A stretch of 64,000 nucleotides of DNA from a virus (lineage: Duplodnaviria > Heunggongvirae > Uroviricota > Caudoviricetes): the IMG/VR virus record IMGVR_UViG_2563366895_000001, positions 27,011-91,010 of that record. One strand, written 5' to 3'. The translations under genes were made by a program, and so were the position numbers. Under the pieces are notes generated by a model, which was not told where the DNA came from, ran no database searches, and saw only the letters and a program-made list of their open reading frames with translations. Position 1 is the first letter of the stretch; every line of letters begins with the position of its first letter. This document shows positions 1 to 27,453 of the stretch, in pieces.

Positions 1-1
1 G

Positions 2-577
2 CCAAAAGAGTATGCATTCCCCAAGATCCGCAACCCTGATCTGACTGGTGTGGCCTGCAAACATGTGTTGCACGCTATGACGCGTTTTCAGTCTCCCACA
101 TGGCACAAGGCCATCATTATTGCCCTGGAAAAAGCAGCTGAACAGGTGGCCTTCGGCGATGACAAGCGGAAGACAACAACCTATTTCAAAGGCGAACTGG
201 CTAAATCGCTCGCGCGCAACCGGACAACAACGACGGATCAGGCTAAAGCTGCGCGTGAGTATGAGCTGTATCTGAAATCTCAGGATGCATTAGGCAAAAA
301 ACTACGCGCAAAAGATAGCGCCACGGACAACGTTCGCCGGTTGTTAAAAAAAGCTCGCACCACGGCAAACAGGAAGAATGCCGAACTAAAAGCATCGCGG
401 GTGAGGGAAGCCCAGGCTCGCGCTGAAGCCGACGCTCTCAAAAAAGCCCTGCAAACGCAGGCGAACAACCTCATAAAGTTTTTCATGAGTCAGGGAATGG
501 ACAAGGCCGCTGCCACTGCGCAGGCGCGAAGCATTCTTGAGACACAAATTAACGAAGCCCGTAAACGGAAAGGATAA
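2..577 (+). CDS. Hypothetical protein, 5'-partial (frame is open from the window edge; listed ORF begins at a GTG at 50)
   Basis: No stop in this frame between nt 2 and 49; basic, Ala/Lys-rich coiled-coil-like C-terminal region; no recognisable motif. Confidence 0.4.
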   Translation, partial: PKEYAFPKIRNPDLTGVACKHVLHAMTRFQSPTWHKAIIIALEKAAEQVAFGDDKRKTTTYFKGELAKSLARNRTTTTDQAKAAREYELYLKSQDALGKKLRAKDSATDNVRRLLKKARTTANRKNAELKASRVREAQARAEADALKKALQTQANNLIKFFMSQGMDKAAATAQARSILETQINEARKRKG

Positions 578-3700
<3,123 letters not shown>

Positions 3701-3817
3701 TTCGATAATGATTTTTGGCCCTGAAAGCGCCTCCCACAATCCCATATAAAGCGCGCTAAAAAATATACAAATATTTTCGCAAATGTTAGACTGAGGAGAA
3801 GTAAAGAGGAGCGAAAA

Positions 3818-4150
3818 ATGACCACAGTTCGTCGTATGCCAGCCCTCAGCCCGGAAGAAATTCGTAAAATTTCGAAGAATGCCGTGGCGACGGTCGCTGC
3901 GGAAAAAATTGTTACTAACAAAACGGCCTTTGTAAAGGCTGCCGTTGCAGGCGTGATTGCAGGCAAAAAAAATGAAGTTAGTCGTAAAGGCGATAGCCAA
4001 ACTGTCCGTAAAGTAGCAGCTGCATCAGCACGGGATGCAAAGGCTTACAGCCTGTCTCGTCAATTAGCAATGTCCGTCCTATCACAGAGCAGCGGGCGGG
4101 AATATATTCAAGAATCGTTTAATCAGGTTCGTAAAAATAAAAAAGCGTAA
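3818..4150 (+). CDS. Hypothetical small basic protein
   Basis: 110-aa ORF preceded by AAGAGGAG Shine-Dalgarno-like sequence. Confidence 0.4.
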   Translation: MTTVRRMPALSPEEIRKISKNAVATVAAEKIVTNKTAFVKAAVAGVIAGKKNEVSRKGDSQTVRKVAAASARDAKAYSLSRQLAMSVLSQSSGREYIQESFNQVRKNKKA

Positions 4151-4203
4151 CCAACGTGATATTTACAAGCTCCTTTGAAGTGGCTTTTTTATTGTGGTGA
4201 AAC

Positions 4204-4914
4204 ATGACTCAGCAAACAAAGAAATGGATTTTTACTGAGCTGGTAAAAGATCCAAATAATATTGAGCAGCTTCTTTCGTATGCGGTTTATAAAGGTTTTA
4301 AGGACGAAATAGCTCGTAACGCTCGCGCGGCCGGTAAAAAAGAATACGAGATTGAGGCTGAGCTTGCGGCCTACCACGATCAATGCCTCAAGTCACCGAG
4401 GCAGCTTCAAGTATTTAAAAGAAGCGCACAAGAAATTTTAGATGGATACGTTTCTGGCGTCAACAACGAGTTGCAGACAAGGTTAGAAACAATTTTTGAG
4501 CAGCAAGAGAATATTTATCAAAACCAAATCAAAGCCCTCCAGAAAGAGAAAGATGAGGCAAACAAAAATGCTATAAAGCAGCTGGTTAAAGGTGTAGAAA
4601 AATACAGCAAGCAAATAAAGAAACCCGTGGGGTTTTGGGAATGTGCCCAAGTCTATGGGATTGCCATATTAAAATTTCTTTTTTCTGGTGTACCAAAACT
4701 TTTTGCCACAGCCTTCTCAATAGGCCTTTTGTTTACAATATGGGGACTCTTTAACGGTGATGCCGTAACAGGTCTGAGAAAAGGACTTTATAAAATGGTA
4801 GATATAACCGTGCCAGGAGAAAAGGTTAACACTACGCAAAATGATGTTGGCTCAATTAGCCCTAACCAGAAGAGTGTTACGGCAAATAAACAGCCCCACG
4901 ATGGAGGGGCATAA
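4204..4914 (+). CDS. Hypothetical membrane-anchored coiled-coil protein (visibly AT-rich cargo gene)
   Basis: 236-aa ORF; central coiled-coil-like region; C-terminal hydrophobic segments (ILKFLFSGVPKLFATAFSIGLLFTIWGLF); AT-rich compared with flanks. Confidence 0.45.
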   Translation: MTQQTKKWIFTELVKDPNNIEQLLSYAVYKGFKDEIARNARAAGKKEYEIEAELAAYHDQCLKSPRQLQVFKRSAQEILDGYVSGVNNELQTRLETIFEQQENIYQNQIKALQKEKDEANKNAIKQLVKGVEKYSKQIKKPVGFWECAQVYGIAILKFLFSGVPKLFATAFSIGLLFTIWGLFNGDAVTGLRKGLYKMVDITVPGEKVNTTQNDVGSISPNQKSVTANKQPHDGGA

Positions 4915-5290
4915 CCATCAGTGGCGGCTGTAGCTCGGACGGATATAACGCATCGGAGGCGACGTAACGGTTGAGCGGCGCGCGAACGAGCTGGAGCCAT
5001 AATAGCGTTTGGTCGCTGGTGGCGTTGTAGCGCGGCGCCGGATGGTAGTTTTTAATGACGGTCGTATGATGCGTGATGTTGATATTGCTGCTGTGTCCAT
5101 AGCCACCACCGCTCATCAGGTGTCCCATCAGCAAGTCGCTGAAGACCCCGCTGTTATCGTAATAGTGGACCCCTCCCGGCGCGGATGGCTGAGCGACGAT
5201 TACCGGTGCCGGGCCGTCACGGTCACACAAGCTGAGCGCAACCAGGGCAAACAGCACGTCACCAGCAATCAACAGATGTTTCTTTTTCAT
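4877..5290 (-). CDS. Putative lipoprotein (P1 plp-like position)
   Basis: Start taken at internal ATG 5290 (MKKKHLLIAGDVLFALVALSLCD, signal peptide with Cys) preceded by GGGAG; lies after the tRNA region as plp does in P1. Confidence 0.4.
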   Translation of the reverse strand: MKKKHLLIAGDVLFALVALSLCDRDGPAPVIVAQPSAPGGVHYYDNSGVFSDLLMGHLMSGGGYGHSSNINITHHTTVIKNYHPAPRYNATSDQTLLWLQLVRAPLNRYVASDALYPSELQPPLMVMPLHRGAVYLP

Positions 5291-5463
5291 CTCCCGCGTG
5301 CGCTCAGCCGCATTCGCCACAACGGAAAGAGCATCTATGGCGCACATCGCGGGAAAAAGCCCACGGTAGAGAGTCGAACTCTACAAATGCTCTTATCTGT
5401 TGTGCACTCCGTTTCGAGGAATAGATGTCAGAGTCGTACCGGCAGAATCATCACATTGGTATA

Positions 5464-5970
5464 TGGTGATGGTTGATGGAATTGAACCGCCGTAGCTATT
5501 TCTTTATATCCAATAAACCTGCGTGGACTTTTCTGTGGCAATTCGCACAGAGGACAATGTACTTCCTTACTTCTTCCTTAAGTCGCTTTCGAGATCGACT
5601 ACATAGGTTAGAAGGATCGCCTTCTTTGCCGCCAGGGTTATCATGGTGGAGGTCCAGAACTATAGGTTCTTTTTCTCCACAATTTTGGCACCCGATGAAG
5701 CGTTTATAACGAGATAAAAACTGACGGTTTGAACTTGTTTTTCTCGTTCTTGTTAACTTTATAAGCCGGCGCCTTGATTCATTGCTTGCATAACTCAGAG
5801 CATCTCTTTCCTTGGCGCACACCTTGCAAATATTTTGCAGGCCATCGCTCTTTCCTTTGTTTTTATGGAAATCGGAAGCAGGTTTTAGTGCTTTGCATTT
5901 GCTACAAATTTTCATCAGTATCCCACTGCTTACAAGGCAGACGCTCTAACCACTGAGCTACACCATCACT
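5464..5970 (-). tRNA. tRNA-Thr(UGU)-like gene in two pieces: 5' part at 5926..5967, 3' part with encoded CCA at 5464..5497, separated by a 428-bp insert
   Basis: 5' part reads GATGGTG-TA-GCTC-AGTGGTTA-GAGC-G-TCTGC-CTTGTAA-GCAG (D-arm, anticodon arm, anticodon TGT); 3' part reads A-GCTAC-GGCGG-TTCAATT-CCATC-AACCATC-A-CCA; acceptor halves pair 6/7 and the anticodon stem is completed only when the two parts are joined. Confidence 0.5.
5496..5915 (-). CDS. HNH endonuclease (homing-endonuclease-like) occupying the tRNA insert
   Basis: N-terminal Cys cluster (CSKCKALKP...ICKVCAKERD) and C-terminal HNH motif (NCGEKEP...LDLHHDNPGGKEGDPSNL...LCANCHRKVH). Confidence 0.7.
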   Translation of the reverse strand: MKICSKCKALKPASDFHKNKGKSDGLQNICKVCAKERDALSYASNESRRRLIKLTRTRKTSSNRQFLSRYKRFIGCQNCGEKEPIVLDLHHDNPGGKEGDPSNLCSRSRKRLKEEVRKYIVLCANCHRKVHAGLLDIKK

Positions 5971-6635
5971 TGCCGGGTACGTCTCCGGCGAGGGCTTCCA
6001 CCTCCGTATGCTTTTCGGCGCACCGCGCCCTAGCTGCAATTCGGTAACAGGGGATGCATAACCCTGGCTTCCAGCGTGATTAGCGCTTTCAGCATGACGG
6101 GATATACCCGTAAATTAGTGGAACTGTACCCAAAGTGCTGTTAAGCACCGGCTGTTACGCTGAAAAGAAGACGCAACAGGAAAGGACGCTGACCAACAGA
6201 TGGCCCCTTCTCGTTCATCTGGTTAATCACACCAGCGCCCTTACCTGTTGTGCCTCCCCATTCCCTAATACACAGACGGGGGCACTCTGCGGTCGATTTT
6301 TTGACGGGGGACGACTCATACCCCGTGGCATCAGGCTTCTTAGGCCGCTGCCATCATCAGATCATCGTTTGCATTTACTTTAATGGTCAGTTTCTAAACC
6401 GCCGCAAAGTCGCTAACCATGACGAAAACCCAGAAAAAACGCCCACCCGAAGATGGGCAAACTGGAAGCTCGTAACGCACTTCGGTGTTGCCACTTAGGC
6501 GTATGGTCAACCTGGCAACTCGGCGTCATGAGGGGGAAGGAGTCACTACCCCGCCATACTTGCCGCCGCGCCTGTCGCGGCTAACAGCTAAATCGCTCTA
6601 TAAATCACGATTCATTGAGTCGATATTACACTAAT

Positions 6636-6652
6636 AAATTTATTAGAGCAAT
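6636..6652 (-). promoter_or_regulatory. C1-repressor operator-like site (16/17 to ATTGCTCTAATAAATTT), overlapping the dmt stop codon
   Basis: Plus strand reads AAATTTATTAGAGCAAT, the reverse complement of the P1 C1 operator consensus. Confidence 0.55.
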
Positions 6653-9600
6653 GTAGCCATAACGTCATGAGCAACACCACGAGTGTCTCCCTTACAAGAC
6701 ACAGAACGTCTGGCAAAGAGAGGTTCCACTCTGAAGCCACTGTCCTGATAAAGTTCTCTGATGTTTGGCGCGCCACTGTTAGTAATGAGTACCTTTGCAC
6801 CTCGGCGATGAGCATCCGTCAACAGAGACACCAGGCGTTTTTGCTCTTCAAACTTAAAGTCATGACCGGAATAGTTCGTGAATCCCTCTGTATTTGGAAG
6901 CGGTTCATATGGCGGATCGCAAAAAATGACATCTCCTTCTCCGGCAGCTTCAATCACCGCAGCAAAATCACCACATACAAACTCAGAACGCCCTTCCGCA
7001 CCAAGGAAGACTTCCATCTCCTGCAATGGGAAATACGGAGTTTTATACTTCCCATAACCGACATTGAACTCACCGGCTTGGTTGTAACGCGTCAATCCAT
7101 TAAAACAATGTCGGTTCAGGAACAAAAACGCCGCTGCGAGATGTAAATCATCATAGACTTGTTTGTTAAACGCATTCCGTACTGCCAGGAATCCCTCCTG
7201 GGTGTTGTAGTCCAGGAAGAAACGATGTGCCAGAGTGATAAGTGAATGCGCCTCGCGTTGCAGAGTCTTGTAAAAGTTAATCAGGTCAGCATTCACATCA
7301 TTTAGCAGATTTTCCTGGTATCCGGCATTTATGAAGACAGCTCCGCCACCAACGAAAGGTTCAATCAGGCGCTTCCCTTCTGGCAAATAGCGAAAGATTT
7401 GTTCCAGAACACCAAATTTTCCACCAGCCCATTTGAATATGGACCGTTCGAATTCTGCCGCTGGTTTAACTTTTCGCTCTTTTGTTTCACTTCCTTCTTT
7501 CTGCCGACATACGGCCTTAGTAATCCGATCGCCAATCCAGCACATTACTGGTATTGCCATACTATTGCCGATCGCTTTGTAACGCGGTCCGTCAGCTGCA
7601 AGCATCGCGGCCTCTTCTTCGCTTAAATCTGGATAGTGATTGCGAAGATATGCCAGTTCATCTGAATTAACTGTTTTACGCTTTTCCGTCGGGATCAACG
7701 TATGCCCATCAGGAAAACCTTGCAGCCTTTCACATTCGACAGGGGTAAGACGGCGCATTCTACCGTCGCCGAGCAATACAATTGGTGCTTCATGGTTACA
7801 TGTCAAAGTTGGTGCCGAATTATCGGTTTTTATCTCAGCCCCTCCTTGCCCATGTGCCATGGCAATTATGTTTGTATCATCGCAAGTTCTGATAGCGATG
7901 TTTGAAGTATATCTGGTAGTTTCCTTCCCCTCGCCTCTGCTCGGCGCAATATCCCGGCGCACGCCTTCGAACTCAAAAAGTACCGTTGCGGGATCGAGGT
8001 CTGTTCGAGCACTTGCGACAACAAACACGCGTCGGCGTCGTTGTGCCACTCCGAAGTATTGGGCATCAAGGATTCTCCAGGCCACTTTTCGCTGCGATCC
8101 ATAAATACAACCACACTGCGGCCACTTTGGAGCATGGCAACCGGTTTTGCCATCCCACCGCCAGAACGCGTTACTTTTTCCTGATTCAGGTCGATCACCT
8201 GGTTCAAATGGCGCATCTTCTCCAGCCAATCCGGCAAGGAAACATCCGAAGGCGTTATCTGCCGATGACAAGACTCCTGGGACATTTTCCCAGACGATAA
8301 CGGCTGGTTTGAGAAATGACTCAGCCCGTTTGTCGTCAATTGCATTTGCAAGCTCCACATACTTTAAAGTTAGCGCGCCACGCTCATCATCAAGCCCACC
8401 ACGTAATCCCGCGATACTGAATGCCTGACAGTTATGGACCACCGCACCATTGAGGATATAGGAATGATCACCTTCGACTTCTATGTTGTATACAGTATCT
8501 AGGCCTACCGATTTAAACTCTTTGACTGTTCGTAAAAGCATTCCATGAGCCAATCTTGATTTACGTGACAATTTCTGCGGGCAGATTGTTACCTGATAAT
8601 AATTCCGTTGATTTACCACGCGATCCTCGATCACTTTTTTGGGCTCAACTTCAATAAAGCTGACCGAAGAAACATAACCACAAGTCTGTGACAACCCCGC
8701 AACGCCCCAAGCAAGCGCAGGACTAACACTATTAATTCTAAATCCCGCTTTACCACTTGGTGTCCCATCAGTATCAAGATAGCCTTGTAAAAACACATGA
8801 CGCAATGGATGCGACATCACCCATGCAGGGATACGCTTAGCATGGCTTAACTCGCCAAAATGTTCATTAAGCCAATTGGCATAACACGTATCATTCAAGG
8901 TTACTTTGATGCTCCCTCGGATTTCGCTTGCCACGGAAAATATGTTTTCTGGTATGCGGCAATGAAACTTTCTCAATTTCTGGCAATTTATGCCAAAAAC
9001 AACCGCCTTCTTAGATTTACCTCTCCATCTCCTAATATATCCATCGCCAACATAAGCGCCCGCAAGATACATAGCCTGTTCTTCAGACAAGAACCGAGAA
9101 CAAATATCTGGAGATGCAATATTGAAATTAGTTAGAGCGCACCATTGATATCCCGGCATATCACATGCTGCTCGCCATTCCGGTTCAGACAACAACTCTC
9201 TCTTAAAATATGTGCCATTTTTCCGGGTGTTTTGGGCTTTCCACCGAACAGCCAGGAAGGGATGGTCATTGGTTGTTCTTATACCTAAAGGCTGCCCAAC
9301 GGCATTAAGTAACCCCGTATTAGCTATTTTTGAACCAACTCTTTTTACTTGTTGTAACCGCCCGAGATGACTGACTACGTAATCGCCAGGGCAAACATCT
9401 TCTATTGGTTTATAACCATTTTTACAAAGAACCATATGCCCCGCGGTAAAACATGGTGTTCCCCCGACGAGCACGTCAGGGGATTCGATTTCCCCAGCCA
9501 AGACTTTTTTGGCAAGTTTTGTCATGTCGCCAAGGTTGGCGACATGGGGCCAGCGGAGCGCAAGAACGGCCGATGGAAAAGGCTCGATTTCAGCAAACCA

Positions 9601-9684
9601 CGCCGGACGCATACCCAACGGTTCCCAGGCAATACTCGCGGCTTCAATTCCACTGCAAACAGATCCATAGCACAGCTCTTTCAC
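6643..9684 (-). CDS. dmt: Bifunctional DNA methyltransferase: N-terminal C5-cytosine MTase domain (interrupted by an intein) fused to a C-terminal Dam-like N6-adenine MTase domain
   Basis: C5-MTase motifs [12 protein letters not shown] (PCQ), VWENVPG (ENV), [17 protein letters not shown]; Dam-like motifs PFVGGGAVF and CDPPYEP in the C-terminal third; stop overlaps nothing but start overlaps hrdC stop (9681..9684). Confidence 0.85.
8431..9453 (-). other. Intein (341 aa) with LAGLIDADG homing-endonuclease domain, inserted at the catalytic Cys of the C5-MTase PCQ motif
   Basis: Extein GGTP | intein CFTAGHMVL...([13 protein letters not shown] ... [11 protein letters not shown]) ...ILNGAVVHN | extein CQAFSIAG; codons checked on the minus strand (TGT at 9453..9451, AAC at 8433..8431, TGT-CAG following). 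Confidence 0.8.
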
Positions 9685-10586
9685 TGCTTAGCCTCTCCGC
9701 CAAGGGCATTTACCAGAGCATCAACCAGGCACGAAATTTCACTGGTCAACAGGAAGAAATCTGCGTCCAGTCGCTGCGCTACATCTTCACTATCAATATC
9801 AGAGTTCTGCTCAAGCAATTCATCCGCAAATTTGACGCTGGTAAGGCTGAAGTTATGGTCCAGTGTAAATTTAATGCGGTTCTGCCAGTCGAGTGCCAAC
9901 TTAGTGACGAGCTTGCCAGCTTCCAGGTGTGTGGAAATTTCATCGCTTCCCAGATCCTGCTTTTTCACTCGGGCAATACCGCCATCCTCAAGCACTGCCT
10001 TAAGTTCTGCCGCATCCCCCATTTGAAATCCCTGTGGAGCACTACCATCACGTACCCAGTCGGTCAGCGTTAATTCAATGGGATTTTCAACACTCAGGGG
10101 AACAACAGGAAGAGAACCCAGAGACTTACGCATAAGCGCGAGCATATCCTCTGCCTGCCGCGCGCTGGCATTGATATAGATACGTTTAGTTGAACCGTCG
10201 TAGATCGCCTGGATAACAGAAAACTTTGAAAAAGCCCGTGGCAGAAGAGAATGCAGAACTTCGTCTTTCAGGGAGTCCTTCTCTGTTTTCTTCAGTTTAC
10301 GCGCTTGTTCTTGCTCAAGTTTTTCAATTTTTTCTTGAATAGCTCGCTGGATAACCGGCGGGGGAAGAATTTTTGTTTCGCGCTTTGCTTCAACAAGGAT
10401 AAAACCATTTCCATGCATAGCGATAACTTCGGAATTATCGCCAAATGGAGATACAAAACCGAACTTGGCCATATCCTGACTACCGCATGGCGTGAAAAGG
10501 ATCATTTTCTTTTTATCTTCTAAGTCGGTCAGATCCGCCTCACGAGAAAGTTTATAAATAGTAATGTTTTTCCAGTGCTTAAACAT
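9681..10586 (-). CDS. hrdC: RdgC-like recombination-associated protein (P1 hrdC position)
   Basis: Start at internal ATG 10586; strong resemblance to E. coli RdgC over the whole length ([16 protein letters not shown]..., [54 protein letters not shown], ending GGEAKQ). Confidence 0.85.
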
Positions 10587-10926
10587 GTTGTAACCCTTGA
10601 ATATCAACCACAGAAAGCTCGTCTTTGTAGAAAAAGGCCAGGTTGTGGCACCCCCTCGTTTGAGCGTATGAGCTGGGACCAATTTCGTTCTTCCAGACAA
10701 ATGGCTTCAAATCCGTACGGCGAAGCATAAAAACGCGATTTGTTCCGCTCTGATTCCCAATGAGGCAAAAGCCTTCTTTCACCTTGATAGCCTGCAAGTT
10801 GTCGAGTTCACCGCTGGTTACACGGCTATCGAACTCCTTGCGGCTTATTAGCTCCATCTGCATCTGACGACTCCAAACAAATGCCCATTGAAGGGCGATG
10901 GCTGAATGGTACCGAAAATACGACAT
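10579..10926 (-). CDS. Hypothetical protein upstream of hrdC (P1 uhr position); start uncertain
   Basis: Listed ORF begins at a TTG at 10935; first in-frame ATG at 10926; no motif recognised. Confidence 0.3.
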
Positions 10927-10934
10927 AAAAAACA

Positions 10935-10951
10935 ATATTTATTAGAGCAAT
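10935..10951 (-). promoter_or_regulatory. C1-repressor operator-like site (16/17) upstream of the uhr-hrdC-dmt block
   Basis: Plus strand ATATTTATTAGAGCAAT, one mismatch to the reverse-complemented consensus. Confidence 0.5.
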
Positions 10952-11032
10952 TTTGTAATAAGTAAACGCCATACAGACCACAAATAACCTAAGTTAAAAT
11001 AACGAAAATCAGAGCAAATAATTGGTGATGGC

Positions 11033-11317
11033 GTGGCAAGTATTGCAACAAAAGACAGCATTTGTTCGGGGCACGGAGGATTCCCATCCAGGCCTCCTGT
11101 AGAGAGTGAACCACTACTTAAAGTCAACGGAGTCGAAGTGTTAGTTGATGGTAAGCAATATGCACAGCATACCGATGGAAACAGTACGCACGGTGGGCAA
11201 GCTATATCAACCAGGGCATGGTTTACCGTCAATGGTAAAGGGATCGTATGCGTTGGTGACCCTGTTTCATGCGGATCTACCGTAGCGTCCGGAGACGGCC
11301 TGGTTCAGGTAAGTTAG
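11033..11317 (+). CDS. Small Gly/Cys-containing protein, possibly PAAR-like; GTG start
   Basis: CSGHGG...VCVGDPVSCGSTVASGDG pattern loosely like PAAR/DUF4280 spike-tip proteins; weak. Confidence 0.3.
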   Translation: MASIATKDSICSGHGGFPSRPPVESEPLLKVNGVEVLVDGKQYAQHTDGNSTHGGQAISTRAWFTVNGKGIVCVGDPVSCGSTVASGDGLVQVS

Positions 11318-11326
11318 GAGATATCA

Positions 11327-12114
11327 TGCTGGAAAAAGACTACCAGTTATCCGCATATAAAAAATTGGCCGCCGCCGGTGGGATGAAAACACCTGGTGCC
11401 ATAACATCGGCACGAAACAGTGCTAACACAGCAAAACTGCTTGCAGAAGAATTGACCGGATTAATTCTGGATACAATTGTCTATCCCGACACTATTACCA
11501 GCTATGTTTCAACGATCAGAACAACCACAACCGGCTTAACGAACATTGGAGAACTGGCAACTAAGCACGCGGACCTGTTGGCTGGTTATGCAGATCTGTC
11601 AATGCTGCTTCAACTCGATATTGGTTGGGATGTTTACTGCCGTGCTAATGAGCGAGAAGTTTCAGAACTGCCGATCTCTATTGCCATTGGTGATGTGAAT
11701 ATTACTAAATCGCTTGAGGACGCTGTTAACGCGCTTAATACATCAAGTTTAGTCGCTGCAATGGGGGAGATTAACCAGACCCTTAACACTGGCTCAGGAA
11801 GCTCGTCAGGCTCTGGTTCAGGCGGCGGCACTGCCACTCCCCCACCAGCACTAACAGAAGAGCAAATTGAATCTCTGAAAGTAGCAACTGAACAGTTTGG
11901 GGTTGTTTTCAACCAGACAACAGCGCCCACAACTGCGTTACAACAGCAGTATGAACGAGCGAATGAAAGCGCCAACGTAGCCATAACTGCTTATAACCAT
12001 GCTATCGGTACCGCGCTTGCGGAAGCATCAGCAAATAAGGCCAGCACAGCCAGCGCAGTTGCCGCTTTGGTTCCTGATTCTGTTCTTGATGAATTAAACA
12101 AAGCGGCACAGTAA
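11327..12114 (+). CDS. Hypothetical protein with Gly/Ser-rich linker
   Basis: ATG 11327 preceded by AGGAG; internal GSGSSSGSGSGGG linker. Confidence 0.4.
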
Positions 12115-26415: not shown

Positions 26416-27453
26416 TTAACCTATTGCTACTGGTTTTAACAAACCAGCATCAAGTAGCTTGCGAGTTAACCACTGCTGGCCTTTACCCGTTAATTGGGGC
26501 GTCAGCCGTATCTGGTAGCCATTTTCATCATCCAGCACCACTTCTTTCACCGTGAAATACCCGGCGTTAATGTACTGCTGGCGCGGTACGTTTTTGCGCG
26601 CACCAAAAGCCATGAGAATGCCGTTCTGGCGCAACCATGAGAAAAGGGCGTTTTGCTTAAGTCCAACGACCTTTGCAAAGTTCCCGATCAGGATTGCATT
26701 AGCCGCTGATACCCGGTCGGCAAAATCGACTTTAGGGGCTGCGGCCACCAGCTGTTGTTCCAACTGCATTTTCTGTTCTGCCAACTCGGCAGCCAGGCGT
26801 AGAGCGTCTGGTAATGTTTGGGGGATCGATGGCGCAGGGGAGTTTGCCTGCTGCAATTCTTCCAGTTTGTCGATCAGCGAACGGCGGACTGCTTTTGACT
26901 CGCGCGCGGCGACTCGCAGGGCTTGTTTGAAAGTCATGGTTATGACAAGCATTGATGTTTTGTTCATTTTTTCCACTACACTTTTTGTGTAGTGCTCACC
27001 ATCAAGCTCATCGAGTATTTTTTCGATGAATTTGTTGTTCCGAACCTCTGGTTCCCTACATAACTTACGCGCTTCATTGACCATCTTTAACAGTGTCAGG
27101 CTGTCGATTGTGTCTCCGGTGTTGGGGATGATATTCACGGCTGGTGCTGGCGTAGCTGAAGCAACAGGTGCTGGTTTTTCAACATTCAAATTATTACCGG
27201 TCATTCTGCGCGCCTCCTTTCTCATTTCTGCTGCCACTGTTGCGTAACGTAGACGTCCTTGTTCAATCAAATAATCCCTGATCTCGGCTATCAGTAGCCT
27301 GTTGATCACAGCCTTATCTGTTCGGGTATAAAAACGTCTGGTTATCATGAAATAGTTGGCAATTGCGCCGGGGATCTCCCGTGTCGGCATACAGGTTGTA
27401 TGCAAAGCGATCGCTTTGGCTATTTCATTACGGGTGACGAGAGGTTTTTTCAT
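26416..27453 (-). CDS. ant: Antirepressor Ant-like protein
   Basis: 345 aa; phage antirepressor-type C-terminal domain; preceded by icd-like ORF with ATGA-type overlap. Confidence 0.65.
   Translation of the reverse strand: MKKPLVTRNEIAKAIALHTTCMPTREIPGAIANYFMITRRFYTRTDKAVINRLLIAEIRDYLIEQGRLRYATVAAEMRKEARRMTGNNLNVEKPAPVASATPAPAVNIIPNTGDTIDSLTLLKMVNEARKLCREPEVRNNKFIEKILDELDGEHYTKSVVEKMNKTSMLVITMTFKQALRVAARESKAVRRSLIDKLEELQQANSPAPSIPQTLPDALRLAAELAEQKMQLEQQLVAAAPKVDFADRVSAANAILIGNFAKVVGLKQNALFSWLRQNGILMAFGARKNVPRQQYINAGYFTVKEVVLDDENGYQIRLTPQLTGKGQQWLTRKLLDAGLLKPVAIG

Follow-up and report, generated by a model that had tools for sequence, protein, structure and literature searches.

A P1-type dmt gene with two methyltransferase domains

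The window, by which we mean the whole 64,000-nucleotide (nt) stretch analyzed here (positions 27,011 to 91,010 of IMG/VR record IMGVR_UViG_2563366895_000001, Caudoviricetes), carries on its minus strand a methyltransferase gene, dmt. Its coding sequence (6643..9684; GTG start, TAA stop) was delimited from the list of open reading frames together with the Pfam and NCBIfam matches, and encodes 1013 amino acids (aa). Judged by nucleotide comparison, the window is part of a P1-like phage-plasmid and the reading frame at 6643-9684 is its dmt gene. Over 100% of its length (3042 nt), it shares 98.5% identity with dmt of the P1 isolate OP279344, and the dmt genes of RCS47, P7 and reference P1 match it in pieces. 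At the protein level, the NCBI entry P0025 has 100% identity to the window Dmt over 1013 aa, and the identical 1013-aa entry in NCBI and UniRef is labelled "Dam family site-specific DNA-(adenine-N6)-methyltransferase".

A sequence-only reading of the window had proposed that two methyltransferase domains are joined in this frame, the cytosine-C5 domain first and a Dam-like domain last. Profile searches, named beforehand as a check in which a missing domain would speak against the proposal, recovered both domains far above chance and in that order. PF00145 (C5 methyltransferase) matches the N-terminal part over four stretches (5.6e-29), and the C-terminal part is matched by PF02086 (D12 class N6-adenine methyltransferase; 1.7e-55, aa 752-985) and by TIGR00571 (dam; 2.9e-72, 243.6 bits versus a cut-off of 114.85, aa 748-1010). 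The Dam-type domain, an N6-adenine methyltransferase domain of the D12 class, spans 6646..7449 on the minus strand (aa 746-1013). Both FxGxG and DPPY are present in it, and the Dam-type motifs that had been named earlier could be located at aa 775-784 (the S-adenosylmethionine motif; nt 7333-7362) and at aa 923-926 (the catalytic DPPY; nt 6907-6918). This part of the protein can also be aligned over its full length with structures of E. coli Dam (2.6e-57; residues 4-266 of 278 are covered). Since the window Dam domain scores 238.5 bits on the host-Dam equivalog NF008152, below its cut-off of 441 bits, the domain is by profile a member of the Dam family and not an orthologue of chromosomal Dam.

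The fused architecture is that of P1 Dmt (AAQ14041.1 in AF234172; 754 aa, annotated as a bifunctional methyltransferase). In P1, this architecture and the role of Dam in pac cleavage are established, the cleavage of pac for packaging being licensed by GATC methylation from host Dam or from Dmt (PMC12707154 and PMC7253447). The window protein is colinear from first to last residue with the Dmt proteins of P1, OP279344 (1013 aa) and RCS47 (1095 aa), and the alignment with P1, which had been suggested as a further check, shows the same C5-then-Dam order throughout, with two indels as the only breaks in colinearity. With the window protein as denominator, the identity is 90% to P1 Dmt and 98% to OP279344 Dmt, and the layout differs only in the intein and in the target-recognition segment described below. 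More distant fusions were sought among 50%-identity representatives, a direct search with the spliced sequence (see below) having returned near-identical P1-family proteins. This search of 1.84 billion representative proteins yielded seven further C5-Dam fusion clusters with 55-68% identity, in which Dam is always C-terminal. A rearrangement of the domain order relative to P1, from a Dam-first ancestor, is ruled out by the full-length colinear alignment and by the same order in eight fusion clusters. E. coli Dam (PDB 2G1P and others) and M.HhaI (PDB 1MHT and others) are stand-alone enzymes, whereas the window protein fuses both kinds. A bifunctional methylase with the C5-then-Dam order is already known as P1 Dmt, and the protein itself is already in the databases. 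The observation of a bifunctional methylase on its own adds nothing new; it is the intein and the target-recognition cassettes that may be of specialist interest.

A predicted intein at the catalytic cysteine of the C5 domain

The C5 domain of the window Dmt is divided by a segment of 341 aa (8431..9453, minus strand; aa 78-418) that is exactly absent from P1 and P7 and has the features of an intein. The N-extein (9454..9684, minus strand; aa 1-77) runs from motif I (CSGIEAAS, aa 10-17) to the Pro of motif IV (VGGTP), as determined by alignment with the Dmt proteins of P1, P7 and RCS47 and with M.HhaI. The C5 methyltransferase part of the C-extein (7480..8430, minus strand; aa 419 to ~735) begins with the catalytic Cys of motif IV (CQAFSIAG) and contains motifs VI (WENVPG, aa 465-470), VIII (QRRRRVF, aa 548-554), IX (aa 644-659) and X (GNSMAIPV, aa 706-713). 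The insertion point thus lies between Pro and Cys of motif IV (GGTP|CQAFS), and residue +1 is Cys419, the catalytic cysteine of this motif. At the same position, P1, P7 and four E. coli plasmid alleles without the segment read GGTPCQAFS (WGTPCQAFS in the P1 reference), and the intein-free site in the P7/P1 sequence is ...GGTACGCCG|TGTCAGGCATTC....

Deletion of the 341 aa in silico leaves a protein of 672 aa, which can be aligned without gaps to P7 Dam (AAQ07538.1, 672 aa), with differences at 29 of the 672 positions (~96% identity); P7 Dam, unlike the window protein, has no intein. By these comparisons, the window dmt is of the same allele type as the 'dam' gene of phage P7. Once the intein is removed in silico, the PF00145 match reaches 2.6e-35, and the alignment with M.HhaI spans C5 motifs I, IV, VI, VIII, IX and X. 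The catalytic motifs, including the PCQ cysteine, are common to M.HhaI and the N-terminal domain of the window protein, motif IV being GGTPCQAFS in the window versus GFPCQAFS in M.HhaI. The C5 motifs had been placed in the N-terminal two thirds of the protein. They are indeed found there, with the refinement that 341 aa of this part are intein and the C5 enzyme itself comprises only ~385 aa.

The putative splicing residues are C78 (Cys1, in CFTAGH), T138-N-D-H141 of block B (TNDH), the terminal H417-N418 and C419. Block F is also recognizable, and two LAGLIDADG motifs with acidic catalytic residues are located at aa 206-216 and aa 298-308 (PF14528, 31-35 bits versus a cut-off of 22.5). Signatures of Hint_2, LAGLIDADG_3 and Intein_splicing were found by profile search at aa 77-418, between the C5 stretches, and TIGR01443 (intein_Cterm) scores 28.9 bits versus a cut-off of 15.6. 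Since the sequence search against PDB chains gave weak matches to solved inteins (the best being the Spl DnaX mini-intein, 0.0013), we used fold prediction and Foldseek. The AlphaFold2 (AF2) model, which was built on the alignment of relatives and has a predicted local distance difference test score (pLDDT) of 82.5, matches PI-SceI (3.2e-19), the TliVMA intein (1.1e-17) and PI-PfuI (4.9e-11). These proteins have the Hint plus LAGLIDADG fold that is predicted for the window intein, with sequence similarity that is barely detectable. By all criteria of sequence and modelled fold, the segment is an ordinary class-1 LAGLIDADG intein.

Proteins with related inteins can be found in other organisms (P0007-P0012, P0018, P0020-P0022, P0152, P0180, P0194 and P0216). 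In ten intein relatives with 27-55% identity, the splicing residues and the LAGLIDADG catalytic residues are invariant, except for the penultimate His. All of these inteins interrupt a C5-methyltransferase at this very Pro|Cys junction, and their hosts range from Pasteurellaceae to Actinobacteria, with alphaproteobacteria among them. The window intein is canonical, apparently active and positioned exactly at the C5 catalytic cysteine, a site reused by related inteins in distant bacteria. We also noticed some departures from this pattern in single proteins. The insert in P0194 is only ~220 aa long and is possibly a mini-intein, and the intein of P0022 (Parvibaculum) resides in a protein without a PF00145 match. 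In P0011 (Mannheimia haemolytica; 439 aa, 578 contigs), the host C5 frame stops ~20 residues past the intein (…VVHNCQSDKGG…), and it looks as if the host gene has been truncated while the intein stays full-length.

DNA methylases of the N6/N4 type in mycobacteriophages are known intein hosts (PMC5050341). These hosts belong to another methylase class, whereas the window intein sits in a C5-methyltransferase whose catalytic cysteine supplies the +1 residue. The same intein is present at the same site, with 99.5-100% identity, in OP279344 Dmt (UYD72463.1), RCS47 Dmt (CDN90818.1) and P0025, and goes unmentioned in all three annotations. The searchable literature yielded no account of an intein in Dmt or P1-like elements, which does not by itself prove that there is none. 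The intein allele is nevertheless common in public data, where it is hidden under the label 'Dam family methyltransferase'.

Two target-recognition cassettes

Between motifs VIII and IX lies a variable target-recognition (TRD) segment (7750..7947, minus strand; aa ~580-645), which in the window is the short 'P7-type' cassette. It shares 100% nucleotide identity with P7 versus ~54% with P1 and RCS47, both of which have a different cassette that is 82 aa longer. In RCS47 Dmt, unlike the window protein, the intein is combined with this long P1-type TRD, and P1 Dmt has the long TRD and no intein. Both cassettes are widely distributed among 5426 complete E. coli genomes, the survey set used throughout. 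The long P1-type TRD was found in 243 of them with the P1 cassette as query, and the short P7-type TRD in 196 at an identity of at least 95% to the window, in a set that contains ~480 dmt carriers. On the strength of these comparisons, the TRD segment of the C5 domain is an exchangeable cassette of two types, which would predict two 5-methylcytosine (m5C) specificities in the P1 family. P1-like plasmids would also be suited to testing whether Dmt writes m5C and at which motif.

A further difference between P1 Dmt and the window protein lies in motif IV. Codon 74 of the P1 reference (AF234172) encodes Trp in place of the Gly of motif IV (VWGTPCQ versus VGGTPCQ; window 9463-9465), whereas every other allele examined has Gly. 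Trp74 may impair the C5 activity of the laboratory P1 strain.

Distribution of the intein among dmt alleles

The intein DNA was detected in 152 of the 5426 genomes, almost all on plasmids, and is at least 99% identical in every record. The Dam segment of dmt was detected in 480 genomes, mostly with 95-99% identity to the window. These counts place the intein in about one third of the dmt-carrying genomes, or 2.8% of the whole survey set. Further occurrences are in 133 PLSDB plasmids, including those of Salmonella and Shigella, and in E. fergusonii records.

Among eleven alleles compared for intein and TRD, each cassette, short or long, occurs both with and without the intein. In six further alleles that carry it, the intein shares 99.5-100% identity with that of the window. 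The Dam segment is 96.7-96.8% identical in five of these, the sixth being the near-identical allele of pWL164-2 (99.9%). A near-identical intein next to a Dam segment with ~3% divergence suggests that the intein has recently spread by homing. The flanks of the insertion site, over ~20 nt on the upstream side and ~70 nt on the downstream side, are also of a single haplotype in the seven alleles with the intein (the window and the six others); in RCS47 this common tract stops ~125 nt downstream. Five of the six intein-free alleles have the other flank haplotype, with differences at third codon positions, and P7, unlike the window, has the intein-free haplotype by the insertion site. Such a pattern fits what homing with co-conversion would give. 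One allele speaks against this interpretation: NZ_CP062902.1 is intein-free and has intein-type flanks, which may reflect plain linkage, or an ancestral or secondarily intein-less allele. The flank pattern is therefore an imperfect marker of homing, and we do not use the haplotype as a clean one. P1-like plasmids nonetheless offer a convenient natural system for the study of intein homing among plasmids.

Two otherwise near-identical plasmids were found to carry a damaged module. In pWL164-2 (L005 7470-8420), the 5′ end of dmt and the 3′ end of rdgC have undergone rearrangement, and the annotation lists rdgC as a pseudogene. The damage in pRM10386-1 (L009 1488-1518) is an altered 3′ end of dmt.

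Predicted dependence of the two methylation activities on splicing

With its PCQ motif split by the intein, the C5 domain should be inactive in the precursor. The Dam domain is uninterrupted and begins 330 residues past the intein, so that GATC methylation should be independent of splicing. We infer that splicing is needed only for cytosine methylation and not for GATC methylation. It had been asked earlier which modification the intein controls: with the intein in C5 motif IV, this modification would be m5C and not N6-methyladenine (m6A) at GATC.

These considerations lead to the following model. A single polypeptide, with an N-terminal C5-cytosine methyltransferase and a C-terminal Dam-type GATC adenine methyltransferase, would be made from dmt, the last gene of a C1-repressed uhr-hrdC-dmt operon, via translational coupling to hrdC. 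Cys78 would attack the peptide bond upstream, Cys419 would act as the +1 nucleophile and Asn418 would cyclize, by which GGTPCQAFS would be restored. Splicing would free a 672-aa enzyme equivalent to P7 Dam and a separate endonuclease, and the Dam domain would work with or without splicing. The intein would itself be a selfish element, persisting through homing from one dmt allele to another. What the comparisons show directly is the architecture, the colinearity, the exact boundaries of the intein, its conserved catalytic residues, the modelled fold and the population pattern. We regard it as highly probable that this explanation is correct as a whole, namely that the window encodes a P1-type Dmt whose C5 domain is split by a self-splicing homing intein and whose Dam domain is left untouched.

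Several points weigh against this explanation. The splicing, m5C and endonuclease activities of the window Dmt are predictions from sequence and fold, and we likewise infer actual splicing, both methylase activities and homing. Two of the intein profiles are marginal, with Hint_2 at 28.5 bits versus a cut-off of 28.4 and Intein_splicing under its cut-off. According to GenBank, P1 Dmt methylates GATC adenines "and perhaps" C5 cytosines. Furthermore, dmt is non-essential to P1 in a dam+ host (PMC10695390), and selection on the gene may therefore be weak.

The last two points would also suit a different explanation, in which the function of Dmt resides in its Dam half alone. The C5 domain would then be an evolutionary relic, and the intein a tolerated or splicing-dead passenger that controls nothing of consequence. 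The Trp of the P1 reference in place of the conserved Gly of GGTPCQ agrees with this possibility, as does the NCBI name, which covers a Dam family enzyme only. However, all six recognizable C5 motifs are intact in the window allele, and two distinct TRD cassettes are each present in roughly 200 or more complete E. coli genomes. In addition, the splicing residues are invariant down to 27% identity at the same site of C5-methyltransferases, which points to ongoing selection for splicing and, with it, for the host C5 enzymes. We therefore consider a purely Dam-type Dmt improbable.

Another possibility is that an internal promoter or start also yields Dam as a protein of its own, or even that this is its main source. 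The fused polypeptide would then not be the Dam species that matters, and the intein would for that reason be irrelevant to Dam. In favor of this, the P7 record lists a predicted late promoter (LPdam2) within the gene, ahead of the Dam domain, and in-frame ATG codons are present at aa 694, 709 and 714. In the window, however, the LPdam2 core has 3 mismatches in 19 positions, the internal ATG codons are without an obvious preceding Shine-Dalgarno sequence, and no sigma-70-like site was found inside dmt on its own strand. The fusion and its order are also kept in seven distant clusters, which argues that the fused form is selected. A separate Dam protein is accordingly less probable still.

It could also be supposed that the intein is a conditional switch, responding to redox state at Cys1 and Cys+1, to temperature or to DNA damage, so that m5C is on only in some phase of the life cycle. 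Since the catalytic Cys of the methylase doubles as the +1 nucleophile, methylase activity would be strictly splicing-dependent, and both nucleophiles are cysteines. If this were true, the two marks of one polypeptide would be uncoupled, with GATC m6A always on and m5C written after splicing, and it would depend on the exchangeable TRD cassette which cytosine motif comes under this control. Against such a switch, the sequence is indistinguishable from that of an ordinary constitutive class-1 intein, approximately two thirds of the dmt alleles have no intein, and the population pattern fits a selfish homing element. Of the explanations weighed here that keep the domain order, we give this one the least credence. 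A selfish, self-splicing intein in the C5 domain of a P1-type Dmt is thus the explanation that we favor.

Operon context and neighboring features

Immediately upstream of dmt on the minus strand is hrdC (9681..10586; RdgC family, 301 aa; PF04381, 8.5e-98; PHROG 724). The TGA stop of hrdC and the GTG start of dmt overlap by 4 nt (GTGA, 9681-9684), and a Shine-Dalgarno-like GGAGAGG is found 7 nt upstream of the dmt start. Translational coupling of dmt to an RdgC homologue, as the sequence-only reading had suggested, fits this overlap, and the hrdC-dmt arrangement is the same in the relatives P1, P7 and RCS47. The first gene of uhr-hrdC-dmt, according to the P1 annotation, is uhr (10579..10863, minus strand; 94 aa), which overlaps hrdC by 8 nt.

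C1 repressor operators are located on both sides of this operon. The one corresponding in position to P1 Op68 (Odmt) lies upstream of uhr (10935..10951, minus strand) with 1 mismatch to the consensus. The bivalent operator known from the P1 and P7 annotations as Op72ab (Oban), which controls ban, is at 6625..6652 and overlaps the last codons and the stop of dmt. The end of dmt, Thr-Leu-Leu-stop, sits within the perfect operator 17-mer ATTGCTCTAATAAATTT. In the window as a whole, the C1 operator pattern has 7 matches versus 0.27 expected. Like the window, P1 has a uhr-hrdC-dmt operon with a 4-nt overlap between hrdC and dmt and with C1 operators at both ends.

The association of rdgC with the fused methylase extends beyond close relatives of P1. 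In three distant C5-Dam fusion loci from metagenomic assemblies (L006 3048-7447, L007 2081-5349 and L008 2106-5610), rdgC lies directly upstream with an overlap of 1 to 11 nt. In one of the three, an intein is likewise inserted at the site used in the window Dmt. Conservation of the rdgC-dmt module therefore reaches beyond P1-like elements.

An Rfam scan of 4000-12000 gave no RNA feature at the gathering thresholds, and no tRNA genes were found in 1-12000; P1 has tRNA-Asn and tRNA-Thr genes downstream of dmt. The homology with P1 ends at 5942, inside the P1 tRNA-Asn gene. Just past this breakpoint (region 5496-5967), there is an open reading frame for an HNH endonuclease on the minus strand (5496-5915; PHROG 2255, 2.7e-38). 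At the other end of the operon, the PHROG matched by Uhr (7.9e-64) bears the annotation nucleoside triphosphate pyrophosphohydrolase, and a UpfC homologue that is transcribed divergently from uhr (11033-11317) has a PAAR motif.

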